DNA of 64,000 nt from Acidimicrobiia bacterium (GCA_041744375.1 JBGTLA010000053.1:44536-108535); one strand, 5' to 3'. Numbered from the stretch's first letter, positions 26,709-46,373 are shown. A program made the numbers and translations. Notes: a model not told the origin generated them from the letters alone.

Positions 26709-26733
26709 GGTCCCCGTCGGTACGACGGGGACC
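26709..26733 (-). terminator. Intrinsic terminator-like hairpin downstream of the RRM gene
   Basis: Perfect palindrome GGTCCCCGTCG-GTAC-CGACGGGGACC (11-bp GC-rich stem), followed on the minus strand by UUCUUCG, 38 nt after the RRM stop codon. Confidence 0.55.
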
Positions 26734-26770
26734 TTCCGTGGCGGCTGTCGCTGCCCTTAAGCGTGCTTCC

Positions 26771-30900: not shown

Positions 30901-32754
30901 GACGTGTTCGGGAACGGCATGCTCGGGTCGGACACCATCAGACTGGTGGCCGCCTTCGACCACCGGCACATCTTCTTGGACCCCAATCCGGATCCGCAGG
31001 TGTCGTTCCGAGAGCGCACGAGGCTCTTCGATCTGCCCGCCTCCAGTTGGGACGACTACAACCGGGACCGGATTTCTGAAGGCGGAGGGGTCTTCGCCCG
31101 GACGGTCAAGCAGATCGAGCTCTCTTCGCAGGCACGGGAGAGGTTGGACACCCAAGCCACGGCAGTCACGCCCGCCGAACTCGTCACGATCGTTCTTCGG
31201 GCACCGGTGGACCTGCTCTGGAACGGCGGTATCGGCACGTACGTCAAGGCGACTGACGAGACCCACGAGTCGGTGGGCGATCGAGCCAACGACTCGGTGC
31301 GCGTCAACGGCTCGGACCTCCGCTGCCGGGCTGTGGTCGAGGGAGGGAACCTCGGGTTCACCCAGATGGGACGGATCGAGTACGCCAGTCGCGGGGGAAG
31401 GATCAACGCCGACTTCATCGACAACTCCGGCGGCGTCAACTGCTCGGACCGCGAGGTGAACCTGAAGATTCTGCTGCGTCTGGCCGAGTTGAGCGGCGAG
31501 GTCGGACGTGCCGAGCGTGATGAACTGTTGGCCCGACAAGCCGACGATGTGGTCGAGGGCATTCTCCACGACAGCTTCCGGCAGGTCCAAGTTCTCGCTC
31601 TCGAAGAAGAGGACTCGGCGGAACACGTGGACGCCTACGAGCAACTCATGACTTCTCTGGAGGGTGAGGGAATGCTCGACCGTAGCCTGGAACACCTACC
31701 CACTTCCCAGCAGATGACGGAGCGGGCCAAGGCCGGGTTGGGACTGAGCCGCCCGGAGTTGGCTGTGCTTCTCGCCTACTCCAAGAGAAGCCTGGTCGAG
31801 GCGTTGTTGTCGTCGGATCTTGTGGCAACGGCCTCAGCAGCCGAAGATTTGCACAAGTACTTTCCACGCGAAGTCGTCGACCGATTCGAACACATCGTCG
31901 AGCATCACCCCCTTCGTCGTGAGCTGGTCGCCACCTTGATCACCAACGACGTGGTCGACAGTCAAGGTCTCACTTTTGTGTCTCGCCTCGCCACCCGCAG
32001 TGGCGCCGCCGCGCCCGATGTCGTCGCGGCCTACCGCATTGCCCGCGATTTCGTGGGAGGCGCCCAGCAGCGGAGCGCCATCGAAGCGCTCTTCGGTTTG
32101 GTGGACCCGCGGATCTGGAGCGAGATGATGGCCGCCAACGATCGGCTCGTGGCCACCCTGACCAGGTGGTTCCTGAGGCGTAGGCCCGGGGGTCCGGATC
32201 TCGGCGGGGATCTATCAGCGTGGGAGTTCTCCCAGTTGGCAGAAGAAGCAGCCGATTGGGGAACATTCCAGTGGCGGCTCGCCCGCCGTGCAGGCATCGA
32301 TCGCCTCGAATCCGCAGGGGTACCGGCAGACCTCGCTGGTCGGACGGTGCTGGCTGTCGATCTGGTGCATGCCCCCGACATCATCGAGGTGGCGAGAGCG
32401 ACCGGTCGTTCTCGGGGCGACGTCGGGCGCATGTTCTATCGCGTCGGGCGTGCTCTTCGGTTGACGGCTGTTGGCAGGGTATTGGCGAACTTGCAGTTGG
32501 CCGATGCCTGGCAACGGTGGGCGCTGCAGGAGATCGAAGATGACCTCTTGGCTGCGCGTCGATCCTTGGCTGAGGCAGTCCTGGCCGAAGCCGCGCGGGG
32601 ATCGGTCGACGAAGCGGTGGAGAGGTTCGTGGCACAGCGGGCGGATGAGGTGCGCCGAATCCTAGAGCTGGTGAGGTCTCTCGAATCGGGGCCGGTCACC
32701 GACCCCGCTCCGCTCATGGTGGCGGTGCGCCAGATTCAGGCATTGTCCTCCTGA
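27991..32754 (+). CDS. NAD-specific glutamate dehydrogenase, large bacterial form (~180 kDa)
   Basis: 1587-aa ORF whose length and central catalytic region ('GGIRWSER', 'VPTGAKGGFV') match the Bac_GDH family. Confidence 0.85.
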   Translation: MDPVASPSSTVLLEGILERLADTEGSLAAFANAYLRRIPWDVDMSEEAIYHEIVGLYDFVGKRPPGTISVRAFNPTLPTHGYASDGTVVEVNIDDSPFLVDSVTNELQSHDLAVVRVLHPVVGMTRDKAGQLLSVQPAARSQVRESVQHYVLDRHVDSDDLAPLEERLEEVLATVLSAVGDFERMLGTVESMVELVRAGAGHFSPVEVDEAVAFLEWLRDDNFVFLGYREYRISDTPEGRALHGVPGSGLGILSDPERSRVSKPILLSSLSPDVAARYEKGDLLAITKTNRLSVVHRRARMDYVGVRIVGPKGETVGEARMLGLFTSKAYMASVLRIPVLRHKVAQIAAAEDLIEGSHDHKMIVGLVEGFPKDELFGLPTEDLRRVLMGLLALQERAQVRLFVRRDLLDRGVRVLVAMPRERYSSELGRRLQELFLERFEGTTVDYHLTLTRSDLARLHFTVWVPQGQIPDVPFEVLEAEVAALARSWSERVAEVLTARRGARRAQELVERWADRMPGYYSASTQLTVAAGDMECLDELTRTGQESLVGLQNEAAGPDILTRVALYEMQGKRPLSELMPALEDMGLKVVEEVPTRLSGAENIFIHDFGVLAADGKLLDLETSADKVAASLAAVWDGSAESDSLNRLVLVAGLDHHQVAILRAYQTYWRRVASIFTVRYVNDTLVAHPEATAALVRLFELKFDPASDGHGYPEACDEIMARLDAVPSLDEDRILRGFFRLIEATVRTNAYRKGRRALALKVRSAEVPDMPAPRPLFEVFVVGDEVEGIHLRAGRRARGGIRWSERREDYRTEVLGLMKAQVTKNSIIVPTGAKGGFVLRRPPSGREAMREAVRSGYETFIRGLLDITDNLVGGEVVHPVDTRVHDDADPYLVVAADKGTAKFSDTANDIAREYDYWLDDAFASGGASGYDHKRLGITARGAWKSLERHFLQDGLDPHTETFTVVGIGDMSGDVFGNGMLGSDTIRLVAAFDHRHIFLDPNPDPQVSFRERTRLFDLPASSWDDYNRDRISEGGGVFARTVKQIELSSQARERLDTQATAVTPAELVTIVLRAPVDLLWNGGIGTYVKATDETHESVGDRANDSVRVNGSDLRCRAVVEGGNLGFTQMGRIEYASRGGRINADFIDNSGGVNCSDREVNLKILLRLAELSGEVGRAERDELLARQADDVVEGILHDSFRQVQVLALEEEDSAEHVDAYEQLMTSLEGEGMLDRSLEHLPTSQQMTERAKAGLGLSRPELAVLLAYSKRSLVEALLSSDLVATASAAEDLHKYFPREVVDRFEHIVEHHPLRRELVATLITNDVVDSQGLTFVSRLATRSGAAAPDVVAAYRIARDFVGGAQQRSAIEALFGLVDPRIWSEMMAANDRLVATLTRWFLRRRPGGPDLGGDLSAWEFSQLAEEAADWGTFQWRLARRAGIDRLESAGVPADLAGRTVLAVDLVHAPDIIEVARATGRSRGDVGRMFYRVGRALRLTAVGRVLANLQLADAWQRWALQEIEDDLLAARRSLAEAVLAEAARGSVDEAVERFVAQRADEVRRILELVRSLESGPVTDPAPLMVAVRQIQALSS

Positions 32755-32922
32755 CCCCCACACGGCCGTGTTCGGTTGGTGTGCCACTGCCCTAGACTGG
32801 GATGGACGGCTCGATGGCCGTTTCACTTCTGTTCGCGGAGCCTCGTCGGCTCACCGCTACCCCGCTTGGATGAGTGATGTCGCCCGCTCGCCGCCTCGGT
32901 GAGCTCCCGACGAGGAGGATGG

Positions 32923-34107
32923 ATGGAAGTCGAGATACCTGAAGCCTCGATCGGTTTCGTGAGCACTTATCCACCCACCGTTTGCGGTTTGGCCACCTAC
33001 ACGAGTTCGCTCATCAACGGGATCGCCTACGATCGAGGCTCTCGATCTGGCCTGGGCGTGGTCAGCCTCACCGACCGACACGCCTCACCCAGACCACGCG
33101 ACGTCGTCTTCCGGCATCGTGTGGGCCACGGCCCTTCGCTCGATGCCGCCCTACGAGCACTCAACTCCTACGACGCCGTCTCGATCCAGCACGAGTTTGG
33201 AATCTTCGCCGGACCCGACGGCGTTGAGGTGATGGATCTCGTGGCCGGTGTCACGGTTCCTACCGCTGTGACCTTTCACACGGTGCTCGAGAATCCCACC
33301 GACCACCAGAGCCTCATAATCGCCGGCCTCTCCGAGCACGCCGATCGCATCGTGGTGATGAGTGAGGCAGCCTCGGCCAGGCTCACTCGCCGCTACGGGA
33401 TGGACCCGGGCGAAATCGATGTGATACCCCACGGAGCCGACGCTCGCCTCGCCCGACCCTCGCTCGTCGACGGCGATCGCCCCCTGGTTCTCACCTGGGG
33501 TCTGATCGGCCCCGGTAAGGGCCTCGAAACGGCGATCGAGGCGTTCAGCCAGCTGACCGACCTCGATCCGGCCCCCCGTTATCTCATCGCGGGGTCCACG
33601 CATCCCAACGTGGTGGCCGCGTCAGGCGAATCATATCGGGAGGGTCTGGTCTCGCTGGTAGCTGGTCTTGGATTGGAGGAGCTCGTCGAATTCGACGACC
33701 GATATCTCGATGGTGCAGCCCTGGCCCGTCTCGTGCGCAGTGCAGAGATCGTGGTACTGCCTTACGAGTCCCTCGAACAGGTGACCTCCGGCGTGTTGGT
33801 CGAAGCGATCGCGGCCGCCAAACCGGTGGTGGCTACTTGCTTTCCTCATGCAGTGGAACTCTTGTCGCGAGGTGCGGGACTCACCGTTCCACATGGCGAT
33901 CCGCGGGCTCTGGGTGGGGCGCTCCGGCAGCTGCTCACCAACCGGTCGGTGATGGCCCGGATGGGAGGTGAGGCCCGGCGGATGGCCGATGGCTGGTACT
34001 GGCCGACCATCGGGCGGCGTTTCGGTACCATGATGTCCGCCCTGGCCGCGGCCGACGAGACGGGCGGGCCGGGAACCGTGCCGGAGGTGCGACGTGTCGC
34101 CGGATGA
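32923..34107 (+). CDS. Glycosyltransferase family 4 (GT-B, retaining; mannosyltransferase-like)
   Basis: N-terminus 'FVSTYPPTVCGLATYT' and C-terminal GT1 domain. Paralogous to the GT4 at 56554..57702. GAGGAGG RBS before ATG 32923. Confidence 0.8.
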   Translation: MEVEIPEASIGFVSTYPPTVCGLATYTSSLINGIAYDRGSRSGLGVVSLTDRHASPRPRDVVFRHRVGHGPSLDAALRALNSYDAVSIQHEFGIFAGPDGVEVMDLVAGVTVPTAVTFHTVLENPTDHQSLIIAGLSEHADRIVVMSEAASARLTRRYGMDPGEIDVIPHGADARLARPSLVDGDRPLVLTWGLIGPGKGLETAIEAFSQLTDLDPAPRYLIAGSTHPNVVAASGESYREGLVSLVAGLGLEELVEFDDRYLDGAALARLVRSAEIVVLPYESLEQVTSGVLVEAIAAAKPVVATCFPHAVELLSRGAGLTVPHGDPRALGGALRQLLTNRSVMARMGGEARRMADGWYWPTIGRRFGTMMSALAAADETGGPGTVPEVRRVAG

Positions 34108-35182
34108 CCAAGCCGGACCAGGTACCCATCCCTCCTCACCCGAGTCGGACCGGGGGCATCTGCCACCGCCATTGTTCGCCCATCTCCGGGCCCTCACCGA
34201 TCGCCTGGGAGTCTGGGAGCACGCCAAGTTCTCCGAGCCCCGAGTCGAGCACGGGTTCTGCACCGACGACAACGCTCGTGCCCTGGTTGTCGTCTCGCGA
34301 CAGCCGCAGTCAGGTGCGGATCTGGTAGACCTGTCGGGCATCTACCTGAAGTTCGTGCTGGCGGCTCGGATATCCTCTGGGCACTTCCACAACAGGCGCG
34401 AGGCGGGGGGCGGATGGATCGATGAGGTGGGGAGTGACGACTGTCAGGGCCGGGCCTGGTGGGCCCTGGGAACCGTTGCGCACCGGGGTCCGGGTGCGGC
34501 CATGCGCGCCGCGGGTGCCGACGCCTTCGCCACGTGCGCATCTTTTGGGTCACAACATTTGCGGGCCAACGCCTACGCCTCCCTCGGAGCCTTCGAGATG
34601 CTCCAGGCCGATCCGCGCCACTCGGGCGCCGCTCGCCTTATCGAGCAAAGCTCAGGGGTGATCGCCTCCGCCGCCCGCAGTCGGATTCCGTGGCCCGAGA
34701 TTCGCCTCAGCTACGACAACGCTCGCCTCCCCGAGGCGTTGCTGGGAGCCGGTGCGGCAATGAGCGACGCCAAACTGACCGCCATCGGTATCCGCCTGCT
34801 CGAATGGCTCGTGGGCGTGGAGACCAACGGTGATCACTTCAGTTTCGCGCCCGACCACGGATGGGCGCCCGGTGAACCGCGTCCAGGATTCGATCAGCAG
34901 CCCATCGAGGCATGGGCCATGGCCGATGCTTGCTACCGGGCCTGGATCATCACCGGCGACCCCGTTTGGAAGGCCAGGGTCCTCGATGCGGCCCGCTGGC
35001 TCCTGGGGCACAACGACACTCACCTGAACCTTTACGACCGAATCACCGGGGGGACATGTGACGGCCTGATGGAGCACTCCGTCAACCAAAACCGAGGTGC
35101 CGAATCGACCTTGGCCGGTCTGGGAGCTCTGCAGGCCGCGGCCAGGTGCGAGTCGGAGAGTCCCGCCGACGCCACCCGCTGA
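34094..35182 (+). CDS. Hypothetical protein, possibly (alpha/alpha)6-barrel glycoside hydrolase/epimerase-like
   Basis: 362 aa. GTG start with GGAGG RBS, overlapping the upstream GT4 stop. Fold assignment is tentative. The stop overlaps the next gene's ATG (TGATG). Confidence 0.4.
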   Translation: MSPDDQAGPGTHPSSPESDRGHLPPPLFAHLRALTDRLGVWEHAKFSEPRVEHGFCTDDNARALVVVSRQPQSGADLVDLSGIYLKFVLAARISSGHFHNRREAGGGWIDEVGSDDCQGRAWWALGTVAHRGPGAAMRAAGADAFATCASFGSQHLRANAYASLGAFEMLQADPRHSGAARLIEQSSGVIASAARSRIPWPEIRLSYDNARLPEALLGAGAAMSDAKLTAIGIRLLEWLVGVETNGDHFSFAPDHGWAPGEPRPGFDQQPIEAWAMADACYRAWIITGDPVWKARVLDAARWLLGHNDTHLNLYDRITGGTCDGLMEHSVNQNRGAESTLAGLGALQAAARCESESPADATR

Positions 35183-36645
35183 TGTCCGCCCTGCCCGTTA
35201 CCCGGCTCGGCGTCCAACTGGAGCCGGATCCGCGCCGAGTCATCACCAAGCCGTATCTGCCCACCGACTTTGACCCGGTGGCGGGTCAAAGTCGCATAGA
35301 ACGGGTCATCCAGCGGGTTCTGGCTCTGGCGCCCGAGGACGTGACCCGTTCGCTCGAAGAGCTGGGGGAGCGCTTCTCGGCGCGTCACACCGACCTTCAC
35401 GACATCTTCCACCGGGGTTTTGAGGTGGTGGCGCTATCGGTGCCGGCAAAAGTGACGCTCTCTGACGAGATCAAGATGCTGATTGGCGCCTATTTCACAC
35501 ACGAATATTCGCTGGAAGGGGCTGCTTTCACCAACCCTTCGTTGGTTGCCGCCCCCGACCAGTCGGGGGTGGCGGCCGGTTCCCTCAGGGTGATCGTCAG
35601 CCTGCGGGCAGTGGGAGAGGGCCACATATCCTCGATCGAGTTTCGCAATGGGCTCGTCGGGTCGGAGGGAGAGATCGCACTCGAAGTGCCCGGGGCCCCA
35701 GTGACGGGAACGCGTGAGACGCCGACGTTCGACAAGGCCGTGTTCTCGGCCAAACTTGAAGAGATCGGAGCCGACGCCGACCTCATCTGGAAGACGTTGG
35801 GTCGCTTAACGGACATGTTCTCCATGGCCGACCTCGACACCGCCCTTTCCGATCTCCACCGGAACGAAACCTCGTGGGATGTGGTGCACAACGTGACCCA
35901 CGTCATGCACTGGTTGGCGTCGTCCAACTATCTGCTCTCCTTTCCTCCCCGTACCGATATCTCCCAGCGTGTTCTCTTTCCCAGCGGGCCCGCCGAGAGC
36001 CGGGGAATGGAAGATGCCCGTTTTGTGAGGTTCGTAGACCCTGATGGCGAGGTCGTCTACTACGGCACCTACACCGCCTATGACGGGCTTCATATCCTGC
36101 CGCAGCTCATCGTGACGACCGACTTCCAAGACTTCCGGATTGCCACTCTCAACGGTCCGGCCGCCCAGAACAAAGGCATAGCCCTCTTCCCCCGTCCGGT
36201 GGCGGGACGTTACGTCGCTCTCACCAGGCTCGACGGGGAGAGCAACCTCCTCATGATGTCGGACAACGTGCGTTCGTGGCATGACGCCCAAAGAATCCAG
36301 ATCCCGACTCGTTCCTGGGAACTGATGCAGATCGGGAACGCTGGTTCACCCATCGAGACCGATGCCGGATGGCTGGTGGTCACCCACGGTGTTGGCCCGA
36401 TGAGGCAGTACGCCCTCGGTGCGATCCTGCTCGACATCAACGATCCCCGACGGGTGATCGGTCACCTCCGCGACCCCCTGCTGGAACCAGACGAGACAGA
36501 GCGTGACGGATACGTTCCGAACGTGGTTTACTCGTGCGGGTCGGTAGTACACGGGGACCGGCTCGTCATCGCCTATGGCGCCTCGGATACCTACACCAGG
36601 TTCGCCACGCTGTCTATCGACTCGCTGCTGGGCGAGTTGACGTGA
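35182..36645 (+). CDS. GH130 family glycoside phosphorylase-like protein with N-terminal extension
   Basis: C-terminal ~300 aa carry GH130 signatures ('EDARFVRF', 'YYGTYTAYDG', 'DPLLEPDETERDGYVPNVVYSCG', 'YGASDTYT'). An extra ~170-aa N-terminal domain is present. Confidence 0.75.
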   Translation: MSALPVTRLGVQLEPDPRRVITKPYLPTDFDPVAGQSRIERVIQRVLALAPEDVTRSLEELGERFSARHTDLHDIFHRGFEVVALSVPAKVTLSDEIKMLIGAYFTHEYSLEGAAFTNPSLVAAPDQSGVAAGSLRVIVSLRAVGEGHISSIEFRNGLVGSEGEIALEVPGAPVTGTRETPTFDKAVFSAKLEEIGADADLIWKTLGRLTDMFSMADLDTALSDLHRNETSWDVVHNVTHVMHWLASSNYLLSFPPRTDISQRVLFPSGPAESRGMEDARFVRFVDPDGEVVYYGTYTAYDGLHILPQLIVTTDFQDFRIATLNGPAAQNKGIALFPRPVAGRYVALTRLDGESNLLMMSDNVRSWHDAQRIQIPTRSWELMQIGNAGSPIETDAGWLVVTHGVGPMRQYALGAILLDINDPRRVIGHLRDPLLEPDETERDGYVPNVVYSCGSVVHGDRLVIAYGASDTYTRFATLSIDSLLGELT

Positions 36646-36660
36646 CATGAATGACCGCTC

Positions 36661-37704
36661 TCATTCTTCGAGGATCCGGTGGTAGAGCGCCAGATAGTCG
36701 TCGACCATCCTGGCCGCATCGAACCTGTCCTCGATGGAGCGCCGCACGTGGCGGCGGTCCAATCGGCCGGCTTCCTCGACGGCGTCGGCGGCTGACTGCT
36801 CATCGGTGACCAGGTAGCCGTTGATGCCGGGCTGGATGATCTCGGGCATCGAGCCTCTCGGATGAGCGATCACGGGAGTACCACACGCCATCGCCTCGAC
36901 CACGCTGAAACCGAACGGCTCGTCGAAGTCGATGAGATGAAGCAGGGCTCGAGCGCTCCCTAAGACCTCCTGGCGGTCGGCCGGTCCCACCGGGCCCAGG
37001 TAGGTGACTCGCTCGTCGTCTATGTTCGGTTCGACTTCCCGACGAAAGTACTCGTCGTCGTGGACGATCCCGGCGATCACCAGCGGGATGCCGACGCGAG
37101 CCGCCACCTCGATGGCAGTGGCCGTTCCCTTGTCGGGATGGATCCGACCGAAGAAGACCAGCGGCCCGCCCCCGGGACCCGGTTCGAACGCAGCGGTGTC
37201 GATGCCGTGGTGGATCGTGGCGGCGTATGGCAACGCCGGGTGTCGATCGGCCTCGCTGATGGCGACGTAGCGCACCCGGTCGCGGTACTCCAGGTACGCC
37301 GGCAAGGTGGCGTCCGAGGCAAACCCGTGGATGGTTGTGACCATCGGCGTGTCGACCAGCCTCGAGTACGTGAGCGGCACGAAGTCGAGACTGTTGTGAA
37401 TCACATCGAACTCTGCGGAATGCTCGAAGGCCCTGGCGATATGAAGGGTCTCCCACACCCGGGCGTCGATGGTGGGGTCTTCCGAATACCCCGTCGCCGC
37501 CACCCCCACCAAGCGAGCCGAGGTGACAGAGTCGGCGGTAGCGAAGAGAGTGACATCGACGCCTCGCGACACCAGGCCCTCGGTGAGGAGTGAGGCGAAC
37601 TGTTCCCACGGTCCGTAGTGGCGAGGCGGCACTCTCCACGAGATCGGAGCGAGCACTGCCACGCGCAACCCGTTGGTTCGAGGCCGGGGCTCGGGAGTCA
37701 CCAT
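36661..37704 (-). CDS. Glycosyltransferase family 4
   Basis: GT-B fold with the 'EPFGFSVVEAMACGTPVIA' nucleotide-sugar-binding motif. Start at the internal Met (MVTPEPRP...). The upstream in-frame extension is low-complexity. Confidence 0.8.
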   Translation of the reverse strand: MVTPEPRPRTNGLRVAVLAPISWRVPPRHYGPWEQFASLLTEGLVSRGVDVTLFATADSVTSARLVGVAATGYSEDPTIDARVWETLHIARAFEHSAEFDVIHNSLDFVPLTYSRLVDTPMVTTIHGFASDATLPAYLEYRDRVRYVAISEADRHPALPYAATIHHGIDTAAFEPGPGGGPLVFFGRIHPDKGTATAIEVAARVGIPLVIAGIVHDDEYFRREVEPNIDDERVTYLGPVGPADRQEVLGSARALLHLIDFDEPFGFSVVEAMACGTPVIAHPRGSMPEIIQPGINGYLVTDEQSAADAVEEAGRLDRRHVRRSIEDRFDAARMVDDYLALYHRILEE

Positions 37705-37775
37705 CGCCTCCTTCAGACCCGGGCGGTTGTTCGAGAACTCACCCTTGGGGGCGCGGGTCGGGGTGAGGGCCGCGG

Positions 37776-37901
37776 TCAAACGCTCTTGTGCTGTTTGGAT
37801 CCGGCGGCGGCGCCTTTCGCCTTCTTGTCGAGGCGCTTCTGCTTGAGATCCTTCGCAGCCACCTTCTTGGTGGTCTTGTGACCCTTGTCCTTGGTTCCCA
37901 T
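37776..37901 (-). CDS. Small lysine-rich hypothetical protein (41 aa)
   Basis: 'MGTKDKGHKTTKKVAAKDLKQKRLDKKAKGAAAGSKQHKSV', preceded by GGAGG with a 5-nt spacer. No homology recognised. Confidence 0.4.
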   Translation of the reverse strand: MGTKDKGHKTTKKVAAKDLKQKRLDKKAKGAAAGSKQHKSV

Positions 37902-38013
37902 CGGTGCCTCCAGGCCGGCCGCCGAGCTGGCAGCCACCCTCCATTGTCCCACGGTCCGACTCCTAGGACGGCCGGCCTGGGTATGATCCCCGGGTAGTGC
38001 GCGCCGACCAGCC

Positions 38014-38844
38014 ATGAATACAGCCTTCGTGTTTGGTGGGGGTGGACGGTGGGGAGCCGTCGAGGTGGGCATGGCGGCGGCGGTCCTCGAGGCCGGTATC
38101 CGACCCGACGTCGTACTCGGCTCGTCGATCGGTGCCCTCAATGGAGCAATGGTCGCCGCTGACCCCACCGAAGCCGGAGCCATGCGCTTACGCCTGTCCT
38201 GGGAGCAGGTGGAGAACGAAGATCTGCTGTCATCGGGGATGTTCGACCGCATCAGAACTGCCGCCAGGCAGCGCGTATCCACCCACGACACCGACGAGAT
38301 GCGCCGGATCGTCAGCCAGTTCCTCCCCACCGACCGGTTCGATGAGCTTGTCGTTCCCTTCCAGTGTGTAGCTGCCTCGATCGAGCGGTCCGCTGAGCAT
38401 TGGTTCGACTCGGGGTCTCTCGTGGAAGCGATCCTCGCCTCGTCGGCCATCCCCGTCTTGTTTCCGCCCGTCGTCATCGACGGCGAGTCCTTCTACGACG
38501 GTGGCCTGGTCAACTCGGTGCCCGTCGATCGGGCCGTTCAGCTCGGCGCACGTCGCATCTTCGTGTTTCAGGTAGGACGAATCGAGCAGCCCTTGCGGCC
38601 CCCCACGCGACGGCATGAACCTGCCTTGCTCGCCTTTGAGATCGCCCGACGTCATCGCTTCTCTCGCGCCGTCGAGTCGCTTCCCGCCGACACCGAGATG
38701 CACCTCCTCCCCAGTGGGAACATCTTGAGCTTCGACGACACCCGACAGCTGAAGTGGCGCGACACATCCGATACCGCCTCACTCATTCAGAACGCCTACA
38801 CGGCGACCTCCGTCTACATGGCGGACGTCTTGGGGGCCAGATGA
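38014..38844 (+). CDS. Patatin-like phospholipase
   Basis: 'FVFGGGGRWG' oxyanion motif, 'GSSIG' nucleophile elbow and 'DGG' catalytic Asp motif. Confidence 0.85.
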   Translation: MNTAFVFGGGGRWGAVEVGMAAAVLEAGIRPDVVLGSSIGALNGAMVAADPTEAGAMRLRLSWEQVENEDLLSSGMFDRIRTAARQRVSTHDTDEMRRIVSQFLPTDRFDELVVPFQCVAASIERSAEHWFDSGSLVEAILASSAIPVLFPPVVIDGESFYDGGLVNSVPVDRAVQLGARRIFVFQVGRIEQPLRPPTRRHEPALLAFEIARRHRFSRAVESLPADTEMHLLPSGNILSFDDTRQLKWRDTSDTASLIQNAYTATSVYMADVLGAR

Positions 38845-39854
38845 GACTGCCGCCGAGATGGATCCGCCGTATCGTTCTGGGGCCGGCGGTGATCGCCGCC
38901 ACTGTCGCGTTGATCGTTTCTCTGCCGGTGGTGGCCATCGGTGCTGCTTTCGCCTCCCGCTACGTGCCAGGTCGTTGGCGGCCGCTCCGTCTCGCCTGGT
39001 TCCTGTTGGTGTGGTTGATCTTCGAAAGCATCACGGTGATGGCACTGTTCGTGTTGTGGGTGGCCTCGGGTTTCGGATGGAAACTGCGAAGCGAAGGTTT
39101 CCGATCGGCTCACTACGCACTGATGGCCTGGTTCTTGCGCCGGGTCGTGGGGTCGGCGCGTTTCACCTTCGGTCTCGCATTCGAGGGAGACCGGGTCGGA
39201 GAGGGCGATGTCGTCGGGCGCCCGGTGATCCTCATGGCCCGCCACGCTGGGCCGGGAGATTCTCTCCTGTTGGTGGATGCCGTCATGAACCGCTTCCAGC
39301 ATCGTCCTCGGGTCGTTCTCAAGGAAGCGCTGCAGTGGGATCCCGTCATCGACATCGCTCTCAACCGGTTGCCCAGTCGCTTCGTTGCTCCTGGGGGCAG
39401 GGGCGGCTCGGATGCCGTCGACGCCATCGCCGACCTCGCCGCCACCATGACATCGCGCGATGCCCTTGTGATCTTCCCTGAAGGCGGGAACTTCACGGCC
39501 TCGCGGCGGTTGCGGGCCATCGAGCACCTCGATACGGCTGGGCTCAACGTGTTCGCAGACAGATCGCGGGCGATGGAGTTCTTGCTGCCGCCCAAGCCGC
39601 GTGGTGTGGTGGCCGCCATCACAAATGCCCCCCCGGCTGTGGTCGGTCTGGTCGGTCACGTCGGCCTGGATGACATGTCCACTCTCTCGGACATATGGTC
39701 GGGCCTCAAGATGGATCGCACCGTGTACACCCGCATCTGGCTGACCCCCACCGAGGACCTACCTGCCGATAGGCCAGGTCGCGAGTTGTGGCTCTACGAC
39801 CGCTGGCACGACATGGATGGCTGGATCAGGGAACGGAGACGGGCTGGGGGCTGA
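38841..39854 (+). CDS. Lysophospholipid acyltransferase (PlsC/LPLAT family), membrane-anchored
   Basis: N-terminal transmembrane helices, the acyltransferase 'ARHAGPGDS' (HX4D-like) block and the 'VIFPEGG' block. The ATG overlaps the patatin stop (ATGA). Confidence 0.7.
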   Translation: MRLPPRWIRRIVLGPAVIAATVALIVSLPVVAIGAAFASRYVPGRWRPLRLAWFLLVWLIFESITVMALFVLWVASGFGWKLRSEGFRSAHYALMAWFLRRVVGSARFTFGLAFEGDRVGEGDVVGRPVILMARHAGPGDSLLLVDAVMNRFQHRPRVVLKEALQWDPVIDIALNRLPSRFVAPGGRGGSDAVDAIADLAATMTSRDALVIFPEGGNFTASRRLRAIEHLDTAGLNVFADRSRAMEFLLPPKPRGVVAAITNAPPAVVGLVGHVGLDDMSTLSDIWSGLKMDRTVYTRIWLTPTEDLPADRPGRELWLYDRWHDMDGWIRERRRAGG

Positions 39855-39879
39855 CCGGGGCCATCCAACCCGGTCCACC

Positions 39880-40734
39880 TCACGACGCCGGGTGGTCGGG
39901 CTCGGGGTCGAGATTGGGTCGCAACCGATCGCGCCCGTCGCCGGGACGGATCTCTTTGATGAAGCGGGCCGGTACGCCACCCACGACGGTGTAGTCGGGA
40001 ACGTCTTTGGTCACGACCGAGTTGGCCCCCACGATGGTCCTGTAGCCGAGCGTGACCCCGGCCATGACCACGACGTTGTACCCGATGACGCTGTTAGCTC
40101 CGATACTCACCGGATCGAGGCCTCGCCCGGCATGGGCGATCGGTCGCTCGAAGTTGTCGAAGGGGTGGGTGTGGGTCTCGACGGTGACTCCGGCCGACAA
40201 CATGGTGTAGGCGCCGACATCAATGGGCCCCCGGTCGTCGAGCATGGCGTATCGATTCACCAGCACACCGTCACCGAGCGAGATGTTCCTCCCGTCGGAG
40301 AACAAGACGTTGTGGTGGAAGATCACACCCTCCCCGCAGTGGCGGAAGAGTTTCTTGGCCAGGATCATCCGCAGCGGTATGGCGAAACCCTGAAGCATGG
40401 CGGCGGGCGTCTGGTCGAACATACGCCAGAACATTCGGTAATAGAGAAGGGGATCGTCCACGCCCTCCGGACCGTCTCCCTTGAACGGATCGGGTGGCAG
40501 ATAGAACTCACCCGTGGCCTGCGTGTCTCCCACCAGGCGATCCACCTCGTTCAAGAACCGGGTCGCCCTACCAACGAAGGTGTCGCTCGTTACCTCCTCG
40601 GAGAGTCTGGCAAGCAGATCTCCGGCCAGTCCTTCCGGGGGAGGCGCCGATAGAACGTCGCCCAAGCCAGGGAGCTCTGTGGTGGGCCGGTTCGGAGGCA
40701 CGCCGTCGGCCCTGTCTCCCTGCCCCCTAAGCAC
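39880..40734 (-). CDS. Hexapeptide-repeat (left-handed beta-helix) acetyltransferase
   Basis: C-terminal hexapeptide repeats 'IGANSVIGYNVVVMAGVTLGYRTIVGANSVV'. Confidence 0.75.
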   Translation of the reverse strand: MLRGQGDRADGVPPNRPTTELPGLGDVLSAPPPEGLAGDLLARLSEEVTSDTFVGRATRFLNEVDRLVGDTQATGEFYLPPDPFKGDGPEGVDDPLLYYRMFWRMFDQTPAAMLQGFAIPLRMILAKKLFRHCGEGVIFHHNVLFSDGRNISLGDGVLVNRYAMLDDRGPIDVGAYTMLSAGVTVETHTHPFDNFERPIAHAGRGLDPVSIGANSVIGYNVVVMAGVTLGYRTIVGANSVVTKDVPDYTVVGGVPARFIKEIRPGDGRDRLRPNLDPEPDHPAS

Positions 40735-41464
40735 GGCTGGGTACTTTGGTCAGGCTGTTCCTGTCCTGCCAGGCCCGGTAGACCGTCCGGGCATATCCCG
40801 TGAGCACCATTGTCCGGCCGCGCAAGGGTCCGTAGCGGTAACCCATCTTCGAGGTGTTCGGACCGTAGAGTCGAGGGATGGGGACTTCGCGGAACCGCAG
40901 TCCTGCCCTCGCCACTGCGAAGTGGGACTCGAGTTCGGCCTCGTATCCGCGACCGACCAGTGCGACTACGTCGACTGCTCGTTTCGAGAAGCTGCGGAAC
41001 CCCGAGAAGGGGTCGGTAACCCGGTCGCCCGTGAGCTTCTGCACAGCCCGGATCGACCCGGCCCGCACCATTCGACGATTCATTGGTGCGGATTGAACTG
41101 CTCGTTCCAGATATCGACTCCCCACGCAGAGGTCGACACCTTCGCCGAGCACGGGTTGAACGAGGCTCGGCAGCGAGGAGGGCAGATGTTGGCCGTCGCT
41201 GTCCATCCACACCAGGGCGGCGAAGTCCAGATCCCTGAGATGGTCCATGGCCCTACCCAGGGCCGCCCCCTTCCCTCGGTTTCTGTCCTGACGGATCAAC
41301 CTCACCCCGGCGGCACGAACGATCTCAGAGGTTCCGTCGGTCGAGCCGTCGTCGACCACAACTACCGTCACCTCATGACGACCGATGCTGTTCGGCATCG
41401 AGCCGAGAACCTGCCCGATGCTGGTCGCCTCGTTGAATGCTGGTAGGACCACGAAGACTCCCAT
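40727..41464 (-). CDS. GT2 polyprenol-phosphate glycosyltransferase (DPM1/Ppm1-like)
   Basis: 'VVLPAFNEA', 'VVVVDDGSTDGT', 'RNRGKGAAL' and 'DSDGQH' motifs. Start at the internal Met 'MGVFVVLP'. Confidence 0.8.
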   Translation of the reverse strand: MGVFVVLPAFNEATSIGQVLGSMPNSIGRHEVTVVVVDDGSTDGTSEIVRAAGVRLIRQDRNRGKGAALGRAMDHLRDLDFAALVWMDSDGQHLPSSLPSLVQPVLGEGVDLCVGSRYLERAVQSAPMNRRMVRAGSIRAVQKLTGDRVTDPFSGFRSFSKRAVDVVALVGRGYEAELESHFAVARAGLRFREVPIPRLYGPNTSKMGYRYGPLRGRTMVLTGYARTVYRAWQDRNSLTKVPSRA

Positions 41465-41609
41465 GGTAGGAACGTAACGAACGATCGTTCGTTGGTTGTA
41501 GGGTCCTTGGCCCCTAGTGGTCGCTCGAATGATGCCGCCCAATTCCCAACGATCTGTGCAGGCGAAAGGGACCCGGGCAACGCTCGGAGATGGGGAGGCG
41601 CTGGCCGGG

Positions 41610-42080
41610 TCAGGAGGCCGGGCCGGGGCGTATCGGAGGCGGCCCCCAGTGAGCTGCGAGCGCTCGACGGAGACTTTCCACATGTTCGGTGCCGATCCGT
41701 CCGGCGAGTTCGCCTTCGAGTTCTTCGATTACCTTGCTGGCCGCGTGGGCGAGTTGATTGCCTCGGCTCGATAGGCGCACCAACAAGGAGCGAGCGTCAT
41801 TGGGGTCTGGGTCCGTCGTCAGCAGGTCTCTCTGGATAAGCTTGGATATCACTGTATGCATTGATTGTCGGCTGATGCCGATGCGGCGAGCAAGCTCGAC
41901 GGGCCGCGTCCCGTCCTCGTCCACGAAAGCGAATACGAGCGCTTCGGTACGGCTGAATCTTGGCCACCCCGAGGCTTGCAGCCGGCCAACCAGAGCGTCG
42001 TTGAACCAATCCGACGCGAACAGCAGCGCGGCACCCAGGTTGGTGGTCGGTGGGAAGGGGCGGAGAGTATGGTCCGGCAT
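41610..42080 (-). CDS. MarR family transcriptional regulator
   Basis: Winged-helix 'ELARRIGISRQSMHTVISKLIQRDLL...DARSLLVRLSSRG'. Divergent from the NmrA-like gene. Confidence 0.8.
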   Translation of the reverse strand: MPDHTLRPFPPTTNLGAALLFASDWFNDALVGRLQASGWPRFSRTEALVFAFVDEDGTRPVELARRIGISRQSMHTVISKLIQRDLLTTDPDPNDARSLLVRLSSRGNQLAHAASKVIEELEGELAGRIGTEHVESLRRALAAHWGPPPIRPGPAS

Positions 42081-42135
42081 GGATCTCCACCCTAGCCGCC
42101 ATCGGGCGGTTGTAAGGTAAGCTGACGATCTGATA

Positions 42136-42154
42136 TTGTAAGTGAAACTTACAA
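42136..42154. promoter_or_regulatory. Putative MarR operator
   Basis: AT-rich perfect palindrome TTGTAAGT-GAA-ACTTACAA in the 85-bp divergent intergenic region, with an extra TTGTAAG half-site at 42108. It overlaps the RBS-proximal region of the NmrA-like gene. Confidence 0.5.
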
Positions 42155-42164
42155 AGGAGTCGTA

Positions 42165-42794
42165 GTGAATGTCGCCGTAATCGGGGCAACCGGACGCACC
42201 GGTATTCGGGTCGTGGAAGCCCTCGCACAGCAGGGTCACCAGGTACGGGCGCTGGTGCGGAGCCCGGAGAAGGGGAGGGGCCTTCCGGCCGGCATCGAGG
42301 TGGTGGAGGGCCATGCCACCCATGAGGTGGCGATGTCGAAGCTGGTGGCCGGCGTCGACGCCGTCATCGATGTCGCCGGCCCCAGCAAAGCTCACCCCGT
42401 GATACGCCAGGCCATCACATCCAACCTCCTGGTGGCTCTAAAATCGGGTGGCCGGCCTCGGGTGCTGATGCTCACCGGGGCCGGGGTTCGGTTCCCCGAC
42501 GATGTCCCCCAGCTCATCGACCGTCTCATCGTCGGCGCTCTACGTCGCTTGCAGGGAGCCGTGCTGGCGGATGGTGAGGCGGCGGTCCGACTCCTCGCAT
42601 CGTCTGATCATGACTGGACCGTGGTGCGCGTGCCTCGTCTCGTGCAGAGGCCATCCGCGCGGCCCTACCGAATCGTTTCTCATGTGGGACCGGACTCTGG
42701 CACCCAAATCGACCGCCCACAGTTGGCGGCGGCCCTCGTCGAGATCCTCCAGAGTCAAGACTGGAAACGGCGCGCCCCCGTCGTGTCGCGCTGA
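42165..42794 (+). CDS. NAD(P)H-binding NmrA-like/atypical SDR oxidoreductase
   Basis: Rossmann motif 'VAVIGATGRTGIRVV'. GTG start with AAGGAG 5 nt upstream. Confidence 0.7.
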   Translation: MNVAVIGATGRTGIRVVEALAQQGHQVRALVRSPEKGRGLPAGIEVVEGHATHEVAMSKLVAGVDAVIDVAGPSKAHPVIRQAITSNLLVALKSGGRPRVLMLTGAGVRFPDDVPQLIDRLIVGALRRLQGAVLADGEAAVRLLASSDHDWTVVRVPRLVQRPSARPYRIVSHVGPDSGTQIDRPQLAAALVEILQSQDWKRRAPVVSR

Positions 42795-42816
42795 GCTCGA
42801 GGTCGGAGTCCGGCTG

Positions 42817-43041
42817 CTACCCGCCGCGCAGGAGATCACTGATCCTGGCTGCTTCCTCGTGTGACACCTTGGAGACGGCATACCCGGAGTGGACGAGGAC
42901 GTAGTCGCCGGGCTCGGCCTCGGGCACCATGACCAGATCGATGGTGGTCACCTTGTCGTCACCGAGCGCTACCCGAGCCGGGCGGGAGAACTCTGTGCCC
43001 GTTTCGACGGCGATGACTCGGGCGGCGACCGCCAAGCACAT
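42817..43041 (-). CDS. hypC: [NiFe]-hydrogenase assembly chaperone HypC/HupF
   Basis: 74 aa beginning 'MCLAV' with the conserved Cys2. 1-nt gap to the upstream protease gene. Confidence 0.8.
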   Translation of the reverse strand: MCLAVAARVIAVETGTEFSRPARVALGDDKVTTIDLVMVPEAEPGDYVLVHSGYAVSKVSHEEAARISDLLRGG

Positions 43042-43042
43042 G

Positions 43043-43468
43043 TCAGGCACCTGCCCTCTCGAGCTCGTCGATCACTGTCGACACCGCGGATGCGACTTGG
43101 GGAGAGAGTTCGCTCCCTACTTCGAAGCGGGCACCTTCGATCCCATAGATGTCGAGGCGGGCGGGAAGGCGGTGTACCGCGCGCGCCAGTTCGACGATCT
43201 CGGCCAACCCGAAGGAATGGGATGAGGCAAAACTGCGGGTCGGTAATCGGTCGGCGATGGCGTCGAACCGCACGACGGTGCCGGGCAGCCGGCCGGAGCG
43301 GATGGCGTCGACCACCGTCACGTCTTCTTCGCCTTCCCACAGATCCATGAGATCGGAGCAGTCGCTCCTCGCCACCGACGGGACCGATGTGAGGCGCCGG
43401 GCGACGAGGACCCCGGCGGCGTCGTCGCCACGATCCGGGTGCCCGAGACCGATGACCAGACGACCCAT
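43043..43468 (-). CDS. Hydrogenase maturation endopeptidase (HycI/HoxW-like)
   Basis: 'LVIGLGHPDRGDDAAG' metal-binding motif. The ATG lies 2 nt after the large-subunit stop. Confidence 0.75.
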   Translation of the reverse strand: MGRLVIGLGHPDRGDDAAGVLVARRLTSVPSVARSDCSDLMDLWEGEEDVTVVDAIRSGRLPGTVVRFDAIADRLPTRSFASSHSFGLAEIVELARAVHRLPARLDIYGIEGARFEVGSELSPQVASAVSTVIDELERAGA

Positions 43469-43470
43469 CG

Positions 43471-44763
43471 TCAAATTCGCTCCACCGACAGGTCGAGGAA
43501 GTGGGTGGCACAGGAGATGCAGGGGTCGTAGTTGCGGATGGCCTGTTCGAGCTGCCATTGCAGCGTCTCGTCACTGAGGTGAGTGCGCCCGGGAATGTAG
43601 TCGCGCAAGTCCTCCTCGATGCTCAGCTGATTCTGTGAGGTCGGTGGGACGATCTGGGCGGATTCGATCAGTCCTTCCCCGTCCATCGCGTAACGGTGGT
43701 AGAGGATGCCCCGGGGAGCCTCGGACACTCCGTGACCGGTCGAGGACCTCGGATGAGCCTCCACGGCGGGAGCCTCGGGTCGGCGATAGCTGCCGATCAG
43801 CCGCAAGGCCTCTTCGAAGGCGAACACCAGCTCGACCGCCCGGACGATGACGCTGCGGAACGGGTTGGTGCAAGTGGGTCCGAGGCCGGCCCGTTGCGCT
43901 TCGGCCTGGGCTCGTGAGGTCAGCTGTTCGAAATTGAGGCTGTACCTGGCCATCGGCCCTACGTGGTAGGAGCCTCTTTCTTTGATCCGGGCATGGAGGG
44001 CGTTGGACCACTCGACATGCTCCTCTTCGAAGATGTCGGGCCATTGGCCCGGACCGATGTCGATACCCCGGTTAGAGACGATCCGCCCCCGTTGGATGGC
44101 GTATTCGTCGGGATGGTGGACGGCGACGAATTCGTAGTCCCGTTCGAAGTCCGGGAACGGAAACTCCGAGACCCAGCGTACGGTGTCGACCGCAGCCTCG
44201 AGCCCCCACTCGAGGTCGGCGACGAGGGCGTCGAGCTCGGATCGGGTGGGGACCCGAAAGAATCCGCCGACCTTGACATTGACGGGGTGGATCTCCCGCC
44301 CTCCCAGGACCGTCATCAGGTGGTTGCCGATCTTCTTGAGCCGCAAACCGTTTCGCACGAGATCGGGGAAGTCTGCGGCCATCTCGATCCCGCCCGCGTA
44401 CCCCAAGAAGTCGGGTGCGTGGAGGAAGTACACGTGCAGACCGTGGCTTTCAATCCACTCCCCGCAGTAGATGAGCCGCCGAAGATCCTGCAGCTGAGCC
44501 GGTATCTCCACCCCAGCCGCGTCTTCCATGGCGTTGCAGGCGCTCGTCTGATAGGCGATGGGGCAGATCCCACAGATCCGGGCGGTGATGTCGGGAGCTT
44601 CGGAGAAGCGGCGGCCGGCGAGGAGAGCTTCGAAGAAGCGCGGAGGCTCGAAGATCTTGAACTGGAGATCTACCACCTCATCGTCTTGCAGCTTGAGGTA
44701 CATGGCCCCTTCGCCCTCGACACGTGCCAGGTAGTCGACCGTGAGGTCTCGCTCACTGTGCAT
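43471..44763 (-). CDS. [NiFe]-hydrogenase large (alpha) subunit, group 3b-like
   Basis: N-terminal '[10 protein letters not shown]' and C-terminal 'DPCISCATH' Ni-Fe ligating motifs. The C-terminal motif has Cys, not Sec. Confidence 0.9.
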
Positions 44764-45526
44764 ATGAATCGCTCACTTCTCTGAACTCCGGCGCCCACGC
44801 GTTGAAGGTTCTGAGTGCTCGCACCAAATCCACCTCGGGAACTCCCAACGTCGTCCACCACTCGGCCAGCCCTCTCACGTTGGGCGACTCGGAGGGACCG
44901 AAACACCCGTAGCAGCCCCGGTCGTAGGCCGGGCAGATGGCACCGCAGCCGGCCTGGGTCACAGGACCGAGGCAGGGCACCTTGGCCCTCACCATGATGC
45001 ATGGCGTTCCCCGGGCTTTGCACTCCACACATACGCTGTGGCGGGGCACGTTGGGTCGGCGCTGGTGAAGGAAGGAGTCGACGACCTCGATCAATTGCCG
45101 TTTGGAAATCGGACATCCCCGCAGCTCGAAGTCGACGCCGACATGGTCGCTGATTGGGGTGGAGGTCTCGAGAGTGCTGATGAAGGATGGCTCGGCGTAG
45201 ACGATCGAGGTGAACGCCGACACGTCGGCCCAGTTGCGCAAGGCCTGGATGCCTCCCGCGGTGGCGCAGGCGCCGATGGTCACGAGAGCCTTCGACTGGC
45301 CTCGGATCTCGAGGATTCGGTTGGCGTCGTGGAAGGTCGTGATCGACCCTTCCACCAGCGAGAGGTCGTAGGGGCCCTCGATCACGGACTTGGTGGCCTC
45401 GGGGAAGTAGGCGATCTCGACCGCTTCTGCCAATGCCAGTAATTCGTCTTCACAGTCGAGCAGGCTGAGCTGACACCCGTCACACGAAGCGAACTTCCAC
45501 ACGGCGAGTTTCGGTCGATGGTTCAC
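44753..45526 (-). CDS. [NiFe]-hydrogenase small (delta) subunit
   Basis: Proximal cluster motif 'CDGCQ' and NuoB-like fold. GTG start overlapping the upstream stop (GTGA). Confidence 0.85.
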
Positions 45527-46347: not shown

Positions 46348-46373
46348 CGTCCCGGTCGGGACCCTTGTCTGGG

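Follow-up and report, generated by a model that had tools for sequence, protein, structure and literature searches.

Probably three separate gene modules in an 8.5-kb interval of an Acidimicrobiia genome, one of them a candidate beta-mannoside cassette

The eight genes that lie within 8.5 kb at positions 32923-41464 of an Acidimicrobiia contig are, we think, somewhat more probably than not (roughly 55%) three autonomous modules that have come to lie side by side by chance, of which the first, module A, is a self-contained cytoplasmic cassette. Positions refer to the window, the whole 64,000-nucleotide stretch of DNA that was analysed. Module A (32923-37704) comprises a glycosyltransferase (GT4a), an unclassified (alpha/alpha)6 protein, a 487-aa GH130 protein that we call GH130L, and a convergent second glycosyltransferase (GT4b). 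Module B (38014-39854) pairs a patatin with a PlsC-type acyltransferase, and module C (39880-41464, minus strand) pairs a GT2 with a hexapeptide acyltransferase. The likeliest role of module A is to make a soluble, beta-mannoside-containing oligosaccharide in the cytoplasm and to recycle it by phosphorolysis.

Conservation of the modules in other genomes

The original prediction was accurate on the gene list, the families and the start/stop overlaps: all of these recur in Pfam and NCBIfam assignments, in the junction sequences, and in an independent gene call on the identical public contig (L004). It was right, too, that this is not a standard polysaccharide export cluster. None of the interval's genes matches an exporter family in Pfam, and a flippase, polymerase or ABC exporter is absent both from the Pfam assignments across 27991-46566 and from the conserved neighbours elsewhere; lacking these genes, the interval does not qualify as a Wzx/Wzy or ABC-dependent export cluster.

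Modules A, B and C are each conserved in other genomes independently of one another. We compared 42 GH130L loci, from more than 10 phyla, that have at least 5 kb of sequence on both sides: GT4a adjoins GH130L in 39, the (alpha/alpha)6 protein lies beside it in 38, GT4b is present in 26 (at 46-81% identity), and a second, short GH130 occurs in 13. Of 64 cases, 39 have GT4a and the (alpha/alpha)6 domain in a single ORF that encodes a fused protein of ~750 aa. By contrast, within 7 kb of GH130L there is no patatin, PlsC, hexapeptide gene or GT2 at any of the 42 loci, and the first three are missing from all of 80 GH130L loci, relatives at 64-73% identity included. In the closest relatives, the common gene order ends directly after GT4b. 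When all ORFs within 8 kb of 83 GH130L loci were clustered, no further conserved neighbour emerged; neither a transporter, nor a binding protein, nor a Man-1-P guanylyltransferase is conserved beside the cassette.

Seen from module B the result is the same. Of 80 metagenome loci with a PlsC homologue, 69 also have patatin; in 64 it lies directly upstream of PlsC, and in another 4 it is close by but encoded on the other strand. Not one of the 80 carries a glycosyl gene or any other gene of module A or C. The GT2-hexapeptide pair of module C is adjacent at two loci (L166 and L168), the hexapeptide gene following GT2, in unrelated contexts; genes of the other modules co-occur in none of the three GT2 contexts.

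The original prediction had taken the whole interval for a single acylated mannoglycolipid locus, and had named synteny in relatives as a check. That check has now been run, and because the genes of the three modules are not syntenic in relatives, the one-pathway reading fails. Its companion claim, that a phosphorylase works alongside glycosyltransferases, survives for the first four genes, which occur together in more than 10 phyla (GT4b often), and lapses for the rest. In this genome, the three modules may nevertheless lie side by side because they are co-regulated locally. Beyond the interval lies a MarR-family regulator (41610..42077, minus strand; Pfam MarR_2, 1.8e-10), which we count as a flanking gene; it and an NAD(P)-binding gene at 42165-42794 are transcribed divergently.

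The proteins of module A

GT4a (32923..34107, plus strand) is a 394-aa retaining glycosyltransferase of the GT-B fold. Like GT4b, it belongs to CAZy family GT4, both domains scoring above cut-off: Glycos_transf_1 at 63.6 bits and Glyco_transf_4 at 40 bits in GT4a, and 77.3 and 32.5 bits in GT4b. Its best solved relative is TeSPS, at only 1e-12, and its gene overlaps the next by 14 nt.

That next gene (34094..35182, plus strand) encodes 362 aa without a match in Pfam or NCBIfam; an AlphaFold2 model (pLDDT 81.5) is a six-hairpin (alpha/alpha)6 barrel. Homology in both sequence and structure was detected to the YPO2471-like (alpha/alpha)6 proteins (7tem). Two other families were considered and set aside: the AGE superfamily (cellobiose 2-epimerase, mannose isomerase), to which the protein does not belong by sequence profile, and the GH76 alpha-mannanases, whose profile it does not match. 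In mannan catabolism, a cellobiose 2-epimerase is paired with a GH130 mannosylglucose phosphorylase. The epimerase family has a characteristic set of conserved histidines; the (alpha/alpha)6 protein is only 7-13% identical, with no Pfam match, and Asp, Glu and Arg make up most of its conserved residues, instead. The partners differ as well, GH130L being of the E/K (beta-1,2) type and not of the Y/R (beta-1,4) type. The methylmannose-polysaccharide cluster of mycobacteria likewise combines a GT4 (ManT) with an (alpha/alpha)6 hydrolase (MmpH), but it has no GH130, module A has no methyltransferases, and MmpH is not the closest neighbour.

GH130L (35182..36645, plus strand) follows at a TGATG junction in which stop and start share one base. 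PF04041 (91 bits; cut-off 26) matches just the C-terminal 220 aa, over profile positions 86-315, which bears out the N-terminal extension noted at the outset. The protein is a complete GH130 propeller, five-bladed and superposable on solved structures, to which additional N-terminal strands and insertions of helix contribute ~200 aa; domain score and fold together place it in CAZy GH130. Beta-1,2 enzymes account for all of its best sequence matches. All 84 GH130L sequences keep D278 (the proton donor), R349 and H402 (which bind phosphate), and E277 and K331, a pair that aligns with E136 and K184 of Uhgb_MS. Li et al. 2020 (PMC7660257) set out how phosphorylases and beta-1,2-specific enzymes can be recognised within GH130, and GH130L agrees with these rules in its Asp donor, its phosphate-binding Arg and His, its lack of a signal peptide, and the E/K pair at the +1 subsite that marks beta-1,2 specificity. 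It also has a short L2 loop, as in Teth514_1788, an enzyme that accepts GDP-Man (PMC12814180). By sequence, then, GH130L is a predicted beta-1,2-mannoside phosphorylase, and possibly a GDP-Man transferase, too.

It is not, judged on its sequence, an orthologue of any characterised enzyme, and it falls far below the NCBIfam equivalog cut-offs: against the beta-1,2-mannobiose phosphorylase models NF052550 and NF050092 it scores 142-144 bits, over the C-terminal 220 aa only, where 450 and 550 are called for. Where Uhgb_MS has R242, a ligand of phosphate or nucleotide, GH130L has Q in 67 of the 84 sequences and K in 15. GH130L also has an extra motif, R142..GEGH..SS..FR155, that is 100% conserved, and its additional 200 aa could alter substrate or mechanism.

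GT4b (36661..37704, minus strand; ~347 aa, although the gene caller puts its start at 37779) converges on GH130L across a 15-bp gap. It is a retaining glycosyltransferase of the TeGSS/BGluT family, closely homologous to the glucosylsucrose synthase TeGSS (7fg9/8x3q) over its full length (phmmer E 2e-70 over 335 aa, residues 38-370), and its Y55, FFGR motif and PDKG motif align with the UDP-contacting Y18, R179 and K184 that serve as diphosphate ligands in that family. Most likely, by analogy with this homologue, it uses a UDP-hexose. The fructose-stacking W10 of TeGSS is not aligned in GT4b, where S47 takes its place and a Trp comes one position later. The UDP-Glc:tetrahydrobiopterin glucosyltransferase matches GT4b as well (E 9e-31). 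The nearest characterised relative of GT4b makes alpha-1,2-glucosides of sucrose, with no obvious beta-mannoside link.

Upstream of GT4b, at 37776..37901 on the minus strand, is a Lys-rich ORF of 41 aa that was also called in L004. A Pfam search found no match to it, but it has a conserved motif and the same position in two other loci (L001 and L002); tentatively, we regard it as an accessory gene of module A in Acidimicrobiia.

Modules B and C

The patatin-like phospholipase (38014..38844, plus strand; 276 aa) scores 116 bits against PF01734, above cut-off, and has the GGGxxG motif, the GxSxG serine (GSSIG) and the DGG aspartate (YDGG). An ATGA overlap joins its gene to that of the PlsC/LPLAT-type acyltransferase (38841..39854, plus strand; 337 aa), which scores 33.3 bits against PF01553 (cut-off 23), carries the HX4D (HAGPGD) and FPEGG (IFPEGG) blocks, and has two N-terminal transmembrane-like segments (7-42 and 48-79). 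Module B would be an independent phospholipid deacylation/reacylation pair.

Module C, a putative third independent pair, begins with a hexapeptide-repeat acyltransferase (39880..40734, minus strand; 284 aa; Pfam Hexapep) that resembles maltose/galactoside O-acetyltransferases, matches the NCBIfam maltose O-acetyltransferase at 1.2e-23, below cut-off, and has an N-terminal extension of ~120 aa. Its gene overlaps by 8 nt that of the GT2 (40727..41464, minus strand; 245 aa; PF00535, 88 bits), a soluble protein with no transmembrane segment that resembles polyprenyl-phosphate-sugar synthases. We considered the GT2 as an equivalog of DPM1, Ppm1, PpgS or AglJ and rejected it as such: the NCBIfam models that fit it best are PpgS (92 bits; cut-off 370), AglJ (84; 325) and the Dol-P-hexose transferase (56; 375), and it has the general GT2 domain only. 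Modules B and C share catalytic motifs with patatin/PlsC acyl-remodelling pairs and with the Ppm1, PpgS and AglJ polyprenyl-phosphate glycosyltransferase families, but are not orthologues of the named enzymes, every equivalog cut-off being missed.

What the cassette may make

What follows on substrates, flux direction and the nature of the product is conditional, and is read from the gene content, folds, active-site residue conservation, synteny and fusion laid out above. An N-terminal signal or membrane-anchor segment is absent from all four proteins of module A. Three have no hydrophobic segment at all, GT4b has one, internal, at residues 220-240, and nothing ties the proteins to a lipid acceptor. 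GT4a and GT4b, both retaining, would draw on nucleotide sugars for the assembly of an alpha-linked acceptor or primer, to which GH130L might reversibly add, and from which it might remove, beta-1,2-linked mannose by way of alpha-mannose-1-phosphate and phosphate; it may use GDP-mannose as well, like all characterised beta-1,2 GH130 enzymes. The (alpha/alpha)6 domain, fused to GT4a in most phyla, could act on this glycan by trimming, priming or isomerising it. We would expect the end product to be not a lipid but a soluble oligosaccharide inside the cell, where it would serve as a reserve or compatible solute.

Cyanobacteria offer a partial likeness. There TeGSS (tll1591)/Alr1000, which GT4b resembles along its full length, lies beside sucrose-phosphate synthase and makes a stress-induced cytoplasmic oligosaccharide, and TeSPS, the best solved relative of GT4a, is the neighbour of TeGSS. 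Module A, however, has no sucrose-phosphate phosphatase, and no GH130 or (alpha/alpha)6 partner has been described for TeGSS.

Every characterised GH130 phosphorylase has been described in a catabolic or salvage context, and module A might serve salvage, too, GH130L phosphorolysing imported beta-mannosides (fungal, plant or N-glycan-derived, as in Thermoanaerobacter and gut GH130 loci) to Man1P while the GT4s consume GDP-mannose. The locus Teth514_1786-1789 of Thermoanaerobacter sp. X-514 indeed comprises a GT4 alpha-mannosyltransferase, a Man-1-P guanylyltransferase and two GH130 phosphorylases (PMC4264767), and around one-third of our loci also have a second, short GH130. We consider this unlikely, nonetheless. 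The Thermoanaerobacter locus, which has been read as salvage, includes an ABC importer, a GH5 and the guanylyltransferase; no transporter, binding protein or guanylyltransferase is conserved near our cassette in the 83 loci compared, and it has, instead, a GT4-coupled or fused (alpha/alpha)6 domain, a TeGSS-like second GT4 and ~200 extra residues in its GH130. The fusion, and the near-obligate linkage of GT4a to GH130L, argue for synthesis of an endogenous substrate.

It is also improbable that module A glycosylates a non-carbohydrate cytoplasmic acceptor—a small metabolite (pterin-like, compare BGluT), glycerate, an inositol phosphate or a protein—with GH130L adding or editing a beta-mannose cap. 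The family of GT4b does include the tetrahydrobiopterin enzyme, and the invariant motif and large insertions of GH130L could form a new acceptor site; but the E/K pair, also invariant, binds mannose at the +1 subsite and points to a mannoside acceptor, and the (alpha/alpha)6 fold is typical of glycan-acting enzymes. Quite doubtful is the idea that GH130L has lost or changed its classical activity, to become a GDP-Man-dependent beta-mannosyltransferase like some GT108 enzymes or to have a substrate sugar that is not mannose. H402 never varies, nor does R349, the 'H/R switch' residue responsible for Man1P and phosphate binding, and in structure and sequence GH130L is much closer to GH130 phosphorylases than to 2b4w. 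Least credible, and largely refuted by the want of co-occurrence in the loci sampled, is one pathway of all eight genes for the synthesis or recycling of an acylated beta-mannosyl glycolipid, in which the GT2 supplies polyprenol-P-sugar, the GT4s and GH130L make the glycan, and patatin, PlsC and acetyltransferase remodel acyl groups; the compactness of the interval with its short intergenic gaps, the membrane anchor of PlsC and the nearest relatives of the GT2 favour it, but the modules lie on alternating strands with convergent ends, the proteins of module A are unanchored, and the GT2 scores far too low.

We return, then, to a soluble cytoplasmic oligosaccharide. No characterised member of the GT4a/(alpha/alpha)6/GH130L cassette was found, though it spans more than 10 phyla. 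A more specific proposal, which we offer tentatively and with the odds against it, is that across these phyla the cassette produces a mannogen-like cytoplasmic beta-1,2-mannoside, a reserve or stress solute, with the GT4-(alpha/alpha)6 protein as synthase and trimmer and the long GH130 as the phosphorylase/transferase that extends and recycles it. The mannogen cycle of Leishmania uses GT108 mannosyltransferase/phosphorylases, whereas GH130L is GH130 by Pfam and structure; the bacterial cassette adds two GT4s and the (alpha/alpha)6 enzyme. If the proposal is true, a new family of carbohydrate-active enzymes would have the (alpha/alpha)6 domain as its first member, and bacteria would possess in the cassette an equivalent of the mannogen cycle in Leishmania, perhaps the one from which that cycle evolved.

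Eight genes and their surroundings

The interval 32923–41464 holds eight genes, each of which ORF listing and profile searches place where the original prediction had put it. The gene for a glycosyltransferase with GT4 Pfam domains, GT4a (32923–34107, +), overlaps by 14 nt one for a 362-aa protein (34094–35182, +) that has no match in Pfam or NCBIfam. This, in turn, meets the gene for a 487-aa ‘long’ GH130, GH130L (35182–36645, +; PF04041, 91 bits, the match limited to the C-terminal 220 residues), at a TGATG junction. A second glycosyltransferase with GT4 Pfam domains, GT4b (36661–37704, −), converges on these three, and together the four make up module A, or the cassette. Module B comprises a patatin (38014–38844, +; PF01734, 116 bits) and a PlsC-type acyltransferase (38841–39854, +; PF01553, 33 bits), joined at ATGA; module C comprises a hexapeptide acyltransferase (39880–40734, −; Hexapep) and a GT2 (40727–41464, −; nearest to PpgS/AglJ/Dol-P-hexose transferases, far under the cut-offs) that overlap by 8 nt. 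Independent gene calling found the same eight genes on an identical public contig, L004, and the best homologues come from Acidimicrobiia MAGs. None of the eight matches an exporter family, and scans for promoters and terminators were uninformative, giving signals not beyond shuffled expectation.

Upstream lies a 1,587-aa NAD-specific glutamate dehydrogenase (27991–32754, +), and downstream a MarR-family regulator, an NAD(P)-binding protein and a NiFe hydrogenase; the dehydrogenase and hydrogenase bear no relation to the finding. The hydrogenase gene set occupies 43471–45811 (−), where HypC and HycI are also called in L004. The MarR gene (41610–42077, −) has a clear Pfam match, yet went uncalled on L004; it is divergent from the gene for the NAD(P)-binding protein (42165–42794) and lies 145 bp upstream of GT2. 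About 6 kb upstream of the cassette is a large adenylate/guanylate cyclase–AAA_16 protein with a double zinc ribbon (23125–26862, −), and a similar protein occurs near the cassette of a 73%-identity relative (L003, 19151–21476).

One locus or three modules

The original prediction took the eight genes for a single acylated mannoglycolipid locus. This reading was rejected on synteny: in the loci sampled elsewhere, GH130L, PlsC and GT2 occur without each other's modules. Scanning an alignment of GH130L against one genome per species gave 80 loci of 44–56% identity, from Acidimicrobiia, Chloroflexia, Pseudonocardiales, Verrucomicrobiota, Planctomycetota, Bacteroidota, Desulfobacterota, Spirochaetota, Fibrobacterota, Acidobacteriota and Melainabacteria, and from one Asgard MAG. 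Forty-two of these have at least 5 kb on both sides, and when they were searched by tblastn with every protein of the window, GT4a was found within 7 kb in 39, the 362-aa protein in 38 and GT4b in 26; patatin, PlsC, the hexapeptide gene and GT2 were found in none. Across all 80, GT2 matched only twice, at 29% identity and more than 8 kb from GH130L (L022, L085). Clustering of all ORFs within 8 kb of GH130L revealed no further conserved neighbor, neither a transporter nor a guanylyltransferase among them. In the closest relatives (64–73% identity), the common gene order ends right past GT4b and a small Lys-rich ORF.

The other modules keep company of their own. The PlsC-like protein, scanned against metagenomes, gave 80 loci, of which 69 contain a patatin—64 directly upstream, four nearby on the opposite strand and one at the locus edge—and the remaining 11 end too near the PlsC gene to reveal what lies upstream; genes of the other modules appear in none of the 80. 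The patatin motifs (GGGxxG, GSSIG, DGG) and the LPLAT motifs of the acyltransferase (HAGPGD, FPEGG) are intact, and the latter enzyme begins with two TM segments; the two genes of module B are an ordinary pair for deacylating and reacylating lipids. In module C, a soluble GT2 is paired with an acetyltransferase-like enzyme. Homologues of this GT2 at 61–63% identity are followed by a hexapeptide gene in two unrelated neighborhoods, and one at 53% identity stands on its own.

The interval, then, is three autonomous modules that abut in this genome by happenstance, and the glycolipid hypothesis in its specific form is best abandoned. For annotation, the lesson is that neighboring lipid and sugar genes should not be taken for one pathway before synteny has been checked. 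Module A is the notable unit: a cytoplasmic cassette without a transporter, in which a new (alpha/alpha)6 enzyme is fused to the GT4. The fusion with GT4a, a single protein of ~750 aa, is seen in 39 of 64 cases, one natural example being a 749-aa Treponema protein (L050); separate genes are found mainly in Acidimicrobiia, Chloroflexia and Pseudonocardiales.

Cassettes in other phyla vary. About a third carry a second, canonical GH130 of ~311 aa next to GT4b (L042, 8834–9775; L033, 11622–12875; and 15 more loci); it is present in 13 of the 42 loci and absent from the window. Among the copies examined, those of the Desulfobacterota type show an E/R pair (predicted beta-1,3), and that of L033 shows E/K (beta-1,2). 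By analogy with Thermoanaerobacter, two GH130s per cassette suggest a two-enzyme specialization in chain length or linkage. Four cassettes include a GH5-like gene without a signal peptide (L014, 11460–12884, −, and three loci of the same ORF cluster), which in L014 separates GH130L from the (alpha/alpha)6 gene and has a weak Pfam Cellulase match (25 bits). A complete five-gene cassette, comprising a GT4a–(alpha/alpha)6 fusion, GT4b, a short GH130 and GH130L, occupies a 10.2-kb contig of a Promethearchaeota MAG (L063); its presence on an Asgard-binned contig is due to horizontal transfer or else to faulty binning.

Enzymes of the cassette

GH130L has more than 8,000 homologues of 480–500 aa, and its N-terminal 250 residues, searched alone, yield 1,415 clusters at 50% identity. 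Cultured Lentzea, Saccharothrix and Actinosynnema carry homologues as well. It contains the entire propeller, and the ~200 extra residues, which are less conserved, make up N-terminal strands and two helical insertions (residues 37–104 and 185–248). GH130L scores far under the NCBIfam equivalog cut-offs; its best sequence matches, 9fj8, 7fip, Lin0857 and Uhgb_MS, are all beta-1,2 enzymes. GH130 phosphorylases are recognized by an Asp donor, an Arg/His phosphate site and the lack of a signal peptide, and an E/K pair denotes beta-1,2 specificity (PMC7660257; PMC12814180). E277-D278, K331, R349, H402, Y410 and D469 are kept in 84 of 84 GH130L sequences from more than ten phyla, and GH130L has no hydrophobic N-terminus. 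Its L2 loop is short, as in Teth514_1788, an enzyme that takes GDP-mannose too (PMC12814180), and the position of R242 in Uhgb_MS is Q or K, unlike in characterized enzymes. GH130L has all the hallmarks of a beta-1,2-mannoside phosphorylase, its predicted activity. It may be one of the uncharacterized GH130 meta-nodes of Li et al., several of which are non-gut and predicted beta-1,2 phosphorylases (UC2, UC5, UC8, UC9; PMC7660257), and so the prediction at the level of the enzyme is not new.

A motif, R-x2-G-E-G-H-x-S-S-x2-F-R, spans residues 142–155 of GH130L (window 35605–35646) in at least 97% of the 84 sequences, with R142 present in all 84. It does not occur in alignments to canonical GH130 enzymes, and may represent an extra ligand or acceptor site. 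In one 751-aa protein (P0380), the GH130L N-terminal region is found at residues 280–514, preceded by a further domain of ~280 aa.

No curated family claims the 362-aa protein. The original prediction called it (alpha/alpha)6-like, correctly, because an AlphaFold2 model from 36 homologues (pLDDT 81.5, pTM 0.86) folds it as paired helices. Across phyla, conservation reaches at least 93% at 22 polar or aromatic positions: H30, H43, D58, D59, R62, N100, D116, R120, R157, W200, E202, Y207, N209, Q268, Q269, W302, N307, D308, D323, N333, E337 and S338. Their pattern is the predicted signature of a catalytic sugar-binding pocket. Since AGE enzymes are fold neighbors, a GH130 partner of the cellobiose-2-epimerase type was considered and not adopted: no profile matches, and most of the conserved residues are acidic. 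MmpH is another fold neighbor of the model.

GT4b matches the glucosylsucrose synthase TeGSS (7fg9/8x3q) over its full length (E 2e-70) and retains the UDP-diphosphate ligands Y18, R179 and K184; the fructose-stacking W10 of TeGSS is unaligned. The next relative is UDP-Glc:tetrahydrobiopterin glucosyltransferase. TeGSS makes cytoplasmic alpha-1,2-glucosyl-sucrose oligomers, induced by stress. GT4a resembles GT4 enzymes only generically; sucrose-phosphate synthase was rejected as its identity, an E of 1e-12 to its best match, TeSPS, being of this generic kind. A 41-aa Lys-rich ORF (MGTKDKGHKTTKKVAAKDLKQKRLDKKAKG..., 37776–37901, −) with no Pfam match directly precedes GT4b on its strand, and its motif recurs at the equivalent position in two Acidimicrobiia relatives (L001, 12590–12847, −; L002, 12591–12770, −). 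This ORF may encode a genuine small basic protein and be transcribed together with GT4b.

A proposed scheme and its meaning

In what we infer to be the most economical mechanism, substrates and product included, the GT4s would build an alpha-linked primer out of nucleotide sugars; GH130L would reversibly lengthen or shorten it with beta-1,2-mannose, via Man1P/Pi or GDP-Man; and the (alpha/alpha)6 domain would prime or trim the glycan. The outcome would be a pool of intracellular oligosaccharide, for which the Leishmania mannogen cycle, the Thermoanaerobacter beta-1,2-mannoside locus and the cyanobacterial glucosylsucroses offer analogues. Another analogue is the mycobacterial methylmannose-polysaccharide pair of a GT4 and an (alpha/alpha)6 protein, the latter being MmpH, the fold neighbor named above.

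Literature searches (YPO2471/7TEM, GH130+GT4 operons, bacterial mannogen) turned up no account of the cassette, nor of GH130 in its long form or of the (alpha/alpha)6 family. What appears to be new is that GH130L has a conserved link to a GT4 fused with an (alpha/alpha)6 domain and to a second, TeGSS-like GT4. GH130 enzymes are wanted as tools to form beta-mannosidic bonds, a use for which new acceptors could come from a natural GT4/GH130 pair. If the cassette works as its residues suggest, the (alpha/alpha)6 protein would be a new enzyme family, and a GH130 group of more than ten phyla would gain a physiological role. Soil, sediment and gut bacteria would then possess an unrecognized intracellular pool of mannosides.
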